From the NCBI GenBank assembly GCA_964472425.1, contig CAYYLF010000002.1:1-49809 (forward strand): a stretch of 49,809 nt of DNA, in the 5' to 3' direction. This document shows, in pieces, positions 14,046 through 17,040 of the stretch. The notes under the pieces were generated by a model. That model was not told the DNA's origin, made no database searches, and was given only the letters and a program-made list of their open reading frames with translations. Source of the DNA: an uncultured Muribaculaceae bacterium. Lineage in GTDB: Bacteria; Bacillota_I; Bacilli_A; RF39; UBA660. Each line of letters begins with the position of its first letter. The first letter of the stretch is position 1. The position numbers and the translations under genes were made by a program.

Positions 14046-14345
14046 ATGAAAGCTATATTCGTAACAGGTGGAAAACAGTACTATGTTTCTGAAGGCGATG
14101 TACTTTACGTCGAAAAGTTAGACATCGAAGCTGGCAAAGAAGTCGAATTCGACGAAGTCCTCATGGTCGATGGCAAAGTCGGAACACCTACTGTAAAAGG
14201 TGCCAAAGTCGTCTGTAATGTCGAAAAACACGGCAAACAGAAGAAGATTGTCGTTTTCAAGTACAATCCTAAGAAGAAATATCGTAAAACTCAAGGTCAC
14301 AGACAACCTTACACTAAGTTAGTAGTTTCTAAAATAGTAAAGTAG
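14046..14345 (+). CDS. rplU: 50S ribosomal protein bL21
   Basis: [14 protein letters not shown]...; GGGAGGG RBS before ATG 14046. Confidence 0.93.
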
Positions 14346-14352
14346 GTCGGCA

Positions 14353-14646
14353 ATGATAAGAGTAAAAGTTAAACCTGACCACGTCACCATTACCGGCCAT
14401 GCCGAGTATGAAGATTACGGCAAAGACATCGTCTGTGCCAGTGTCTCATCGATAGTCACGACGACTGTAAACGCGATTCTCATGTTCAATCGCAAGACCA
14501 TCGATTACAAAGTGAGTGAAGGTTTAGTCGATATTCGCATCATCTCGCAAGATGATACCACGAAAAAACTCATCGATAATATGCTCGGACTCTTAAGCGA
14601 GTTGGAAGCAGATTATCCTAAGAATATTAAAGTAGAAAGAGAGTGA
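14353..14646 (+). CDS. prp: Ribosomal-processing cysteine protease Prp (YsxB family)
   Basis: GHAEYEDYGKDIVCASVSS motif. Located between rplU and rpmA. Confidence 0.85.
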   Translation: MIRVKVKPDHVTITGHAEYEDYGKDIVCASVSSIVTTTVNAILMFNRKTIDYKVSEGLVDIRIISQDDTTKKLIDNMLGLLSELEADYPKNIKVERE

Positions 14647-14652
14647 AATGTT

Positions 14653-14937
14653 ATGAATTTTATGAAATTGAACATCCAGTTATTCGCTCACGTCAAAGCC
14701 CAAGGTTCTACTCAAAACGGCCGCGATTCAGCCGGTCGTAGACTAGGAGCCAAAGCCTCAGATGGCGAGACGGTGAGTGCTGGAAGCATTCTTTATCGTC
14801 AAAGAGGTACCAAGATTTATCCAGGTACAAACGTCGGAATCGGTAAAGACCATACACTATTTGCCAAAGTCACGGGCGTAGTCAAATTCGAACGCCTAGG
14901 CCGCGACAAGAAAAAAGTAAGTGTTTACGAAGTGTAA
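14653..14937 (+). CDS. rpmA: 50S ribosomal protein bL27 with a Prp-cleavable N-terminal extension
   Basis: [22 protein letters not shown]... has the Firmicute pro-peptide pattern. An alternative ATG lies at 14662. Confidence 0.93.
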
Positions 14938-14940
14938 ATA

Positions 14941-15126
14941 TTGACAAAAGACAAAATTGAAGTATAATATATACTGTATTAAAGAGGAAAGCGATGTATC
15001 CACATCCACCTGACCCGCACATTACGAAGTTTAAGCGAGTAGGTAAAAAGCCGAGAATGAAAGTCCAAAGTGGACCGTTTCTAAATGTGCTTTTGAGGTG
15101 GATACATATAGTTATCTACCTTTTTA
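14941..15126 (+). promoter_or_regulatory. Promoter plus L20-leader-like attenuator upstream of infC-rpmI-rplT
   Basis: TTGACA 14941-14946, 16 nt, TATAAT 14963-14968. Terminator GGTGGATA (15097-15104) / TATCTACC (15113-15120) plus TTTTT. The upstream segment ATGTATCCAC (14993-15002) is a perfect complement of GTGGATACAT (15098-15107), giving an alternative long-range pairing. Confidence 0.55.
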
Positions 15127-15163
15127 TATTATTTATTGATGGAGGTGTGTTTTTATAGCACAA

Positions 15164-15685
15164 TTGAGAAAAGATGAGCAACCTATAAACGATAAGATTA
15201 AGGTCGCCGAACTTATGGTCATCGGACCTAATGGAGAACAGATGGGAATCAAAAAAATCGAAGACGCCTTGACTCTCGCGAGTTATGCCGGACTAGATTT
15301 GGTTTTGATGAGTGGGAACTCTACACCTGCTGTAGGCAAAATCATGGACTACAACAAGTATCGTTATGAAAAGCAGAAAAAAGTCAAAGAACAACAAAAA
15401 CGTCAAAGAGAGAACACCAAAGAACTGAAAGAATACAGATTGACTGCCAAAATTGACATAGGAGACTTCGAAACTCGCAAGAAAAATGCGAGAGAGTACC
15501 TCGTCAAAGGTCACAAAGTCAAAGGTTCTATCCGTTTCAAAGGTAGAGAGATGGCTCATACCGAGATAGGAGCAGATGTACTAAACAAGTTTGCCGCCGA
15601 ACTCTCGGATGTTTCGGACGTCGAACAAAAACCGTCGTTGGAAGGCCGCAATATGTCTATAATACTTGCACCTAAGAAGCAATAA
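15164..15685 (+). CDS. infC: Translation initiation factor IF-3
   Basis: INDKIKVAELMVIGPNGEQMGI... is typical IF-3. The ORF-track start is TTG 15164. An in-frame ATA at 15155 sits 9 nt after GGAGG (15141-15145). Confidence 0.93.
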   Translation: MRKDEQPINDKIKVAELMVIGPNGEQMGIKKIEDALTLASYAGLDLVLMSGNSTPAVGKIMDYNKYRYEKQKKVKEQQKRQRENTKELKEYRLTAKIDIGDFETRKKNAREYLVKGHKVKGSIRFKGREMAHTEIGADVLNKFAAELSDVSDVEQKPSLEGRNMSIILAPKKQ

Positions 15686-15717
15686 TAAAAGTAGAAAGAT
15701 TTAAGGAGGAATTAATC

Positions 15718-15906
15718 ATGCCAAAACAAAAGACACATAAATCTACAAAAAAAGTATTGAATGTAAGAAACAGTGGTAGTATCACTTACAAGAAATCGAA
15801 TGGTAACCACAAAACAGCGAAGGACTCTAGTAAACAAGTCCGCAAACGTAGAAAGGCTGGCTCTTTAAGTAAAGCGAACGCTGCTAGACTTAAAGCTGTA
15901 ATCTAA
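15718..15906 (+). CDS. rpmI: 50S ribosomal protein bL35
   Basis: MPKQKTHKSTKK...; size and position. Confidence 0.93.
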   Translation: MPKQKTHKSTKKVLNVRNSGSITYKKSNGNHKTAKDSSKQVRKRRKAGSLSKANAARLKAVI

Positions 15907-15920
15907 TAGGGAGGTAAATT

Positions 15921-16481
15921 ATGACAAGAGTTAAAGGTGGATCTGTTGCAAAAAACAGACGTAGAAAAGTTTTAAAACAAGCCAAAGGTTACTTTGGAAG
16001 CAAGCATAGATTGTTCAAGACGGCTCAAGAACAAGTATTCCACAGTGGTAAATACGCTTATCGTGACCGCAAAAACAACAAACGTAACTTCCGGAAACTT
16101 TGGATTACGCGTATCAATGCTGGTTGCCGTGCTAACGACATCAGTTACTCTAAGTTCATCGATGGTCTCAACAAGGCTGGGGTAGAAGTAAACAGAAAGA
16201 TGCTTTCCGAAATCGCCATCGACAATCCGGCACTATTCACTTCTTACGTAGAGATTGCTAAAGACGCATTAAACGGAAAAGCGCCTAAAGCTACGAAGGC
16301 CGACGCTCCAAAAGCGGAAGTAAAAGAGGAGAAGAAGACTGAAAAAGTAGAGAAGGCCGAAGAGTCTACGACTGACATCTCCAAGATGACTGTCGCCGAA
16401 CTCAAAGAATTAGCCAAAGAAAAAGGCATCGAAAACTACACTTCTATGAAGAAAGCTGAACTTATCGATGCACTAAAATAA
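15921..16481 (+). CDS. rplT: 50S ribosomal protein bL20 with a ~67-aa C-terminal extension
   Basis: Residues 1-118 are canonical bL20 (TRVKGG...KGYFG...YAYRDR...WITRINA). Residues 119-186 are a Lys/Glu/Ala-rich linker plus [31 protein letters not shown]. Confidence 0.93.
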
Positions 16482-16503
16482 GGACCAACAAGTCCTTTTT
16501 TTT
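16480..16503 (+). terminator. Rho-independent terminator after rplT
   Basis: AGGAC-caacaa-GTCCT followed by T x8. Confidence 0.7.
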
Positions 16504-16526
16504 GAAACATTTTTCTTGACGTCCGA

Positions 16527-16949
16527 TTAATCTTCCTCTAACATCGTAATTCCGTCATCTAAATCTCCGGTTGCTCGGATTAAGATACTTGCCAATTCTC
16601 CGGTTGGAGTTTTGCTGATATTTACAATCACATCCGCGTAATTTAGACCCAACTCCACGAAGTAAAAATCTTTATCGTTTGTCGCTCCGAGAGTATACAC
16701 TTCATCGCTAATCGTTCTCTTCTCTTCGCTGGCGGTTCCATCTACACCGGTCGAAACACTGATTGTTGCCTCAGTCAATTTTTTCCCTACATAATTTAGT
16801 ACTTTTTTGATGTAGACCTCGTTACCAGCGATACTTTCGTATACATTTTCTCCATTTTCGTCATAAAATGAGATATCTTTTGCCAAACGAACTACTCCAG
16901 AAAATTCTTCTGTGCGAGGCTCATCATTTTTTTCCTTATTGAAAAACAT
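16527..16949 (-). CDS. Hypothetical protein
   Basis: 140-aa ORF convergent with rplT. No recognisable motif. Confidence 0.45.
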   Translation of the reverse strand: MFFNKEKNDEPRTEEFSGVVRLAKDISFYDENGENVYESIAGNEVYIKKVLNYVGKKLTEATISVSTGVDGTASEEKRTISDEVYTLGATNDKDFYFVELGLNYADVIVNISKTPTGELASILIRATGDLDDGITMLEED

Positions 16950-17040
16950 ATAACATCACCTATCATAGTTATAACAAAATTGATATTTAGAGTCAATTCA
17001 TTTTTGGATAAGTTAACCCCAATTTACATATGTCAATGCA

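Follow-up and report, generated by a model that had tools for sequence, protein, structure and literature searches.

The structures closest to the domain described here belong to the N-terminal helix bundle of Rho (PF07498; PDB entries 1a8v, 1a62 and 3l0o; rmsd of 1.1-1.5 Å over 36-39 residues, 31-33% identity). In Rho this bundle is the N-terminus of a helicase, and it is the next domain, an OB-fold, that does most of the RNA binding. The same helix-extended-helix (HeH) fold and motif are found in eukaryotic SAP domains (PF02037; Ku70, 1jjr; PIAS1, 1v66; Tho1, 4uzw; and FAN1). SAP proteins act in the nucleus, where they bind DNA or chromatin, and have no ribosomal context; the SAP domain of Ku70 is C-terminal and carried on a flexible linker. 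A further described system is NF011109 (PRK14537), "50S ribosomal protein L20/unknown domain fusion protein", in which L20 is followed by a linker and a small C-terminal domain that, as the name indicates, was catalogued without an assigned function. NCBI has curated a second type of extended L20, the "sunset domain variant" (NF051450). A full-text literature search found no paper on a fusion of L20 with an HeH domain. As for L20 itself, it is a known autoregulator of the infC operon, and its C-terminal globular domain adjoins bL21 on the solvent-exposed surface of the 50S subunit.

We analyzed a bL20 gene (rplT) with an appended domain in an uncultured gut bacterium (GCA_964472425.1, contig CAYYLF010000002.1, positions 1 to 49,809 of the forward strand; "the window" is this whole stretch of 49,809 nucleotides). 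The assembly is a 1.50-Mb metagenome-assembled genome (MAG) of 103 contigs, 93% complete. According to the list of open reading frames (ORF) and their translation, rplT is a single unbroken frame of 186 codons (15921..16481, + strand), with a GGGAGG ribosome-binding site 7 nt 5' of its ATG. Preceded by infC and rpmI, it completes a compact, one-strand operon of three genes, with a promoter-like site 5' and a terminator-like site 3' (Table 1). The encoded protein has three parts: the bL20 core, a linker of 33 residues, and an HeH domain of 35 residues. The last two (residues 119-186) are encoded by positions 16275-16478, and the tail ends in ...[31 protein letters not shown]; both this ending and the linker match the peptides given in an earlier note on this DNA. 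That note had also described an uninterrupted frame followed by a strong terminator; the frame is indeed continuous, with the same architecture in relatives, and a terminator-like hairpin and T-run lie 3' of the ORF at 16480-16505.

Table 1. Features of the infC-rpmI-rplT operon and its flanks, in coordinates of the window.
Feature	Position	Strand	Basis
Consensus sigma-70-type promoter, TTGACA-16 nt-TATAAT, 5' of the infC leader	14941..14968	+	12/12 matches, pattern match only
Terminator-like hairpin (15095-15122) and T-run in the infC leader, possible attenuator	15095..15130	+	sequence pattern; without Rfam L20_leader match
infC (IF3), first gene of the operon, listed start TTG	15164..15685	+	ORF and translation
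rpmI (bL35)	15718..15906	+	ORF and translation
rplT, bL20 core, residues 1-118	15921..16274	+	PF00453, TIGR01032, pLDDT
rplT, Lys/Glu/Ala-rich polyampholyte linker, residues 119-151, predicted disordered	16275..16373	+	pLDDT, variability, dN/dS
rplT, helix-extended-helix domain of Rho_N/SAP type, residues 152-186	16374..16478	+	Pfam, model, fold searches
Stop codon TAA and intrinsic-terminator-like hairpin AAGGAC-N6-GTCCTT, then T8	16479..16505	+	sequence pattern

An Rfam scan of positions 14300-17000 (evalue mode) returned nothing, and hence no L20_leader, so that any attenuator here would be divergent or of a different kind. Beyond the rplT terminator, the window contains a convergent gene. 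On the other side of the operon, an ORF for a Prp-like cysteine protease (14353-14646) lies directly 5' of the L27 gene (14653-14937), whose product has an N-terminal propeptide ([12 protein letters not shown], followed by HVKAQGS...), as in the L27 maturation system of the Bacillota type.

Profile searches supported the three-part reading of the protein. Residues 1-118 had been taken for a normal bL20, and they are one: the Pfam model PF00453 (Ribosomal_L20) aligned to residues 3-107 with 150.1 bits (cut-off 30.8), and the NCBIfam model TIGR01032 (rplT_bact) to residues 1-114 with 156 bits (cut-off 65.65). The extension had been read as a Lys/Ala/Glu linker with a Rho-N/SAP-type HeH ending. 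Both the Rho_N and SAP profiles score above their cut-offs, and the AlphaFold model described below agrees with this reading. Rho_N (PF07498) matched residues 155-185 of the whole protein with 40.7 bits (gathering cut-off 24.9; E 2e-10), and scored 44.6 bits with the last 32 residues alone. The SAP matches (PF02037) are weaker, 26.6 bits with the whole protein and 30.3 bits with the tail alone (cut-off 23.9), and the HeH/LEM model (PF12949) stays under its Pfam cut-off of 28.9 with 22.6-25.6 bits. The tail protein is not a Rho by its TIGR00767 score (16 bits vs 509); unlike in Rho, neither an OB-fold nor a RecA-type ATPase follows the domain, which here is the C-terminus of a ribosomal protein. 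We also considered the L7/L12 dimerisation domain as a candidate for the tail; it was rejected, since Ribosomal_L12_N matched with E values of 0.006-0.12, far under its cut-off, which we treated as a compositional resemblance. Among the curated fusions, NF051450 scored 137.7 bits vs 375, aligning to the L20 part alone. The closest model is NF011109, which has the same architecture: residues 8-145 aligned to its positions 8-147, and the tail alone to positions 167-224 of 232 (E 1e-8). The whole-protein score, 182.3 bits, narrowly misses the curated cut-off of 187, and the rplT product is therefore a close outlier without formal membership.

Structure prediction gave the same picture. In an AlphaFold2 model of the whole protein, built on an alignment of 72 L20-HeH proteins, the L20 core is confident (pLDDT ~90 for residues 51-120), residues 125-150 are predicted to be disordered (pLDDT <50), and the HeH domain consists of two predicted helices (158-167 and 178-185) with an extended segment of 10 residues between them. 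The last 47 residues folded alone, on an alignment of 40 rows, reached pLDDT 83-91 across the HeH. Two fold searches of the PDB ranked residues 1-39 of E. coli Rho at the top: the best Foldseek match was 1a8v (probability 0.99, rmsd 1.1 Å over 36 columns, 33% identity) and the best VIA-align match 1a62 (Z 5.4, rmsd 1.5 Å over 39 residues). They were followed by the SAP domains of PIAS1, Tho1, Ku70, FAN1 and SLX4, and also by LEM domains. Since the domain has only ~35 residues, the statistics of these searches are weak in absolute terms, with nothing at E 0.001 in Foldseek against the PDB (top E 0.25); modest as they are, they agree with the profile result. A sequence search of the PDB with the tail gave weak matches to the SAP domain of Ku70 (E 0.0013) and to residues 8-45 of Thermotoga maritima Rho (E 0.005); the mitoribosomal chains it returned were non-significant, and no solved ribosome carrying the tail was found in it. 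Profiles and predicted models thus confirmed the appended domain as an HeH of the Rho_N/SAP type. Two copies of the tail modelled as a complex (score 0.00, mark 0.42) speak neither for nor against self-association.

The linker and the HeH domain show very different patterns of conservation. Across the 72 L20-HeH proteins, the linker differs in sequence and spans 16-41 residues, and 11 columns of the HeH are invariant (D152, T157, V158, L161, K162, M176, K177, K178, A179, L181 and L185). Conserved and exposed are K162, K166, K168, K177, K178 and Tyr173. In 19 codon-aligned orthologues from the genus or family, the mean pairwise identity is 83% for the core, 70% for the HeH and 31% for the linker, and the pooled Nei-Gojobori dN/dS is ~0.11, ~0.13 and ~0.47, respectively, values that are rough, with synonymous sites near saturation. 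By this estimate, purifying selection acts on the HeH nearly as strongly as on the L20 core. With 31% K/R and 23% D/E, the linker is a polyampholyte whose net charge averages +2; the HeH is roughly charge-neutral (mean +0.85).

We then looked at the distribution of the fusion. Eighteen of the 19 genus or family relatives examined have it, in answer to the earlier note's question of whether relatives share the extension. In a whole-genome protein search, a full-length L20-HeH in a single frame was found in 16 of the 17 genomes of the same genus, and in the 17th (G010) the match falls in two pieces on a single contig. Most other genera of the host's family and several other families also have the full-length fusion. 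Of 398 genomes sampled from the class, at least 89 encode L20-HeH, judged by alignments that stay in one frame up to residue 181 or further, and these genomes represent 13 of the 31 families; in the remaining families L20 has its usual 117-127 residues. In a metagenomic protein index 1190 proteins matched the tail and, among the matches listed, most have both PF00453 and PF07498. Records of L20-HeH that carry names come from uncultured gut MAGs labelled "Bacilli", "Tenericutes" and "Erysipelotrichaceae", from Firmicutes bacterium CAG:582, and from Candidatus Ventrenecus avicola. As judged from these genomes, the fusion is a lineage-wide feature. It is already catalogued in NCBIfam and among Pfam architectures, so the question that remains is functional and not descriptive.

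The same kind of tail is present on other proteins. In relatives, the ribosomal protein uS2 ends in a K/E-rich linker and the same HeH, and in other genera of the family the membrane protease FtsH has a C-terminal HeH (L105, - strand, 665 aa; L104, 664 aa), which we did not see on FtsH in this genome or its genus. A Pfam census of Rho_N in 61 genomes of the family, from 60 genera, returned ORFs of three size classes only: ~167-210 aa in 43 genomes, ~305-410 aa in 59, and ~546-677 aa in ~42 (two of them below the cut-off), which correspond to L20, uS2 and FtsH as verified at five loci and, elsewhere, as inferred from ORF size. Each of the 61 genomes has at least one HeH carrier, and many family members have an HeH on uS2 and an L20 without a Pfam-detectable one. 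In several members of the family (G325:C13 27515-28788; G021:C1 L107 971-2677; G241:C7; G428:C5), rpsB lies directly 3' of rplT, an arrangement that puts two HeH-encoding 3' ends ~1 kb apart.

Outside the lineage, we found bL21 or bL27 proteins that end with the tail motif, 63-72% identical across the last 47 residues. The neighbours of these loci (M16 peptidases, a gene of Kdo-transferase type and TPR proteins) are of Gram-negative type, and one L21-HeH protein is labelled Flavobacteriaceae; the bL21 and bL27 carriers look like Bacteroidota. All these proteins, uS2-HeH and FtsH-HeH in the family and bL21-HeH and bL27-HeH elsewhere, have the C-terminal linker and HeH design of the bL20 tail, and nearly the same motif, D-x-S-x-(M/L)-T-V-x-E-L-K...M-K-K-x-E-L. 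Their tails are 47-72% identical to that of the bL20 studied here over the last 47 residues. The carriers themselves differ, including a protein of the 30S subunit, a membrane protease and other 50S proteins, and the linkers of uS2 are often longer. By these matches, the tail is a general module and not a peculiarity of L20. A phmmer search of the tail against 1.84 billion representative proteins gave 842 matches at E values up to 0.001. The best of them were short fragments and, at lengths of 170-3700 aa, proteins that repeat the HeH 3-8 times in tandem.

In this 93%-complete assembly, bL20 is the only protein with a Rho_N domain. Its uS2 (contig C15, L108 1477-2298, 273 aa) ends exactly where the HeH of relatives begins. 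It keeps an acidic stretch, shows no sign of decay in the core of the gene, and is followed by tsf, which starts 44 nt downstream. All 17 genomes of the same genus have a second HeH match, in an ORF of ~280-350 aa, that we read as uS2 by its size. The uS2 tail thus appears to have been lost recently in this species, which suggests that the HeH carriers are at least partly redundant.

We also searched for Rho itself. Its RNA-binding domain (PF07497) had no match in this genome, and none above the cut-off in the 61 family genomes (this one and 60 others). That the family lacks Rho fits the known lack of this factor in certain small AT-rich genomes (PMC11347177). Nor did this genome yield a multi-domain S1 protein scoring over the TIGR00717 (rpsA) cut-off; in its S1 matches, ORFs of 149-739 aa, the S1 domain occurs singly. 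A general link between the loss of Rho and the presence of HeH tails is unlikely, since tails also occur on bL21 and bL27 in loci of Gram-negative type, and Bacteroides thetaiotaomicron, analyzed as a control, has Rho.

The reading that we favour, and hold to be moderately probable, is that this is a genuine bL20 with a disordered linker and an HeH domain tethered on the 50S subunit, where the domain captures a ligand, most probably nucleic acid. The bL20 core would anchor the protein in the 50S as usual, and the flexible linker would keep the HeH on the solvent side; given that the C-terminal domain of bL20 is located at that surface, ~33 residues of tether would give the HeH access to a large space outside the 50S. 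The tethered HeH would there capture a ligand conserved across bacteria, probably rRNA, mRNA or DNA. Here we infer that the full-length protein is incorporated into ribosomes, and likewise where its tail lies and what kind of ligand it binds. As one motif occurs on carriers in the 50S, in the 30S and on FtsH, and apparently in a second phylum, the ligand should be universal. Nucleic acid is suggested by the relatives of the tail in sequence and structure, namely the N-terminal domain of Rho, SAP, the C-terminus of Ku70 and the SAP domain of FAN1, all of which belong to nucleic-acid-binding proteins, and by the exposed, conserved Lys residues and Tyr. The near-neutral HeH and the polyampholyte linker do not favour a non-specific, electrostatic binding of nucleic acid. 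Further points count against nucleic acid as the ligand. The OB-fold with which Rho holds RNA is absent from the tail protein, and HeH domains of SAP/LEM type can also bind proteins: the fold matches include SLX4-MUS81 (7bu5), LEM-BAF (7ndy), the p53-binding domain of PIAS1 (1v66), and the C-terminal domain of CDNF with BiP.

A serious, if clearly less likely, alternative is that the HeH is a protein docking module on a tether. It would bring to the ribosome, and to FtsH, a conserved partner that could be RNA polymerase, an RNase, a chaperone or a factor, on the model of the bL12 C-terminal domain, which recruits GTPases. A near-identical motif on three machines of the family (bL20, uS2 and FtsH), and on bL21 or bL27 elsewhere, would be expected of such a module, as would the near-neutral charge of HeH and linker, and SLX4-MUS81, LEM-BAF and PIAS1 are consistent with it. 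However, no gene was consistently linked to the tail, its neighbours being ordinary genes of ribosomal operons, and no candidate partner was found; besides, the nearest relatives of the domain are in nucleic-acid-binding proteins.

We consider it improbable that the tail has no specific ligand and acts as a solubility aid, an entropic bristle or a help in the assembly of L20 in a reduced genome. Such a role would suit a linker that is disordered, polyampholytic and poorly conserved, and carriers that vary among genomes, such as the uS2 of this species, without HeH and with an undecayed core. It does not suit the HeH, which at a dN/dS of 0.13 is almost as constrained as the L20 core and keeps 11 positions invariant throughout 72 sequences; one motif kept on five carriers in two kinds of bacteria would be difficult to account for unless the domain had a specific binding surface.

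The earlier note had tied the extra domain to the autoregulation of the infC operon, and a stronger or modified binding of L20 to its own infC-rpmI-rplT leader could be imagined from the regulatory role of L20, and from the promoter and the terminator-like hairpin that precede infC. This connection was not supported, and we regard it as very unlikely. The tail is also found on uS2, FtsH, bL21 and bL27, none of which, to our knowledge, regulates infC, so the job of the module should be more general. Moreover, many members of the family have their HeH on uS2 and none that Pfam detects on L20, and Rfam identified no L20_leader between 14300 and 17000. Finally, that a missed stop, a frameshift or a chimeric MAG joined L20 to an unrelated small ORF, an artefact conceivable in a 103-contig, 93% complete assembly, is scarcely credible: no break occurs in the frame, and dozens of independent assemblies, single-contig genomes included, show this architecture, which excludes a missed stop or frameshift as far as assemblies can tell; the tail is matched by over 1000 database proteins (most, among the matches listed, with L20 and Rho_N domains); and the appended part is under purifying selection.

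Bacterial ribosomes differ in function in few ways, and one of these is the addition of lineage-specific parts to their proteins. The tail described here is small and strongly conserved, and recurs on five carriers (bL20, uS2, FtsH, bL21 and bL27) in at least two kinds of bacteria. A speculative extension of the tethered HeH, which we deem fairly improbable, is that the domain serves all its carriers as a common "address tag", binding one universal ligand (nucleoid DNA, nascent mRNA or RNA polymerase) and so co-locating the ribosomal subunits and FtsH. If this were true, transcription, translation and the quality control of membrane proteins would be physically linked in these Rho-less, S1-less gut bacteria with reduced genomes, and the tag on bL21 or bL27 would be an independent invention of the Bacteroidota. 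The genome analyzed here, in which L20 is the sole remaining carrier of the tail, is a convenient minimal case. The ligand of the HeH would reveal whether abundant uncultured gut Bacilli tether their ribosomes, and FtsH, to RNA, to DNA or to a protein factor.
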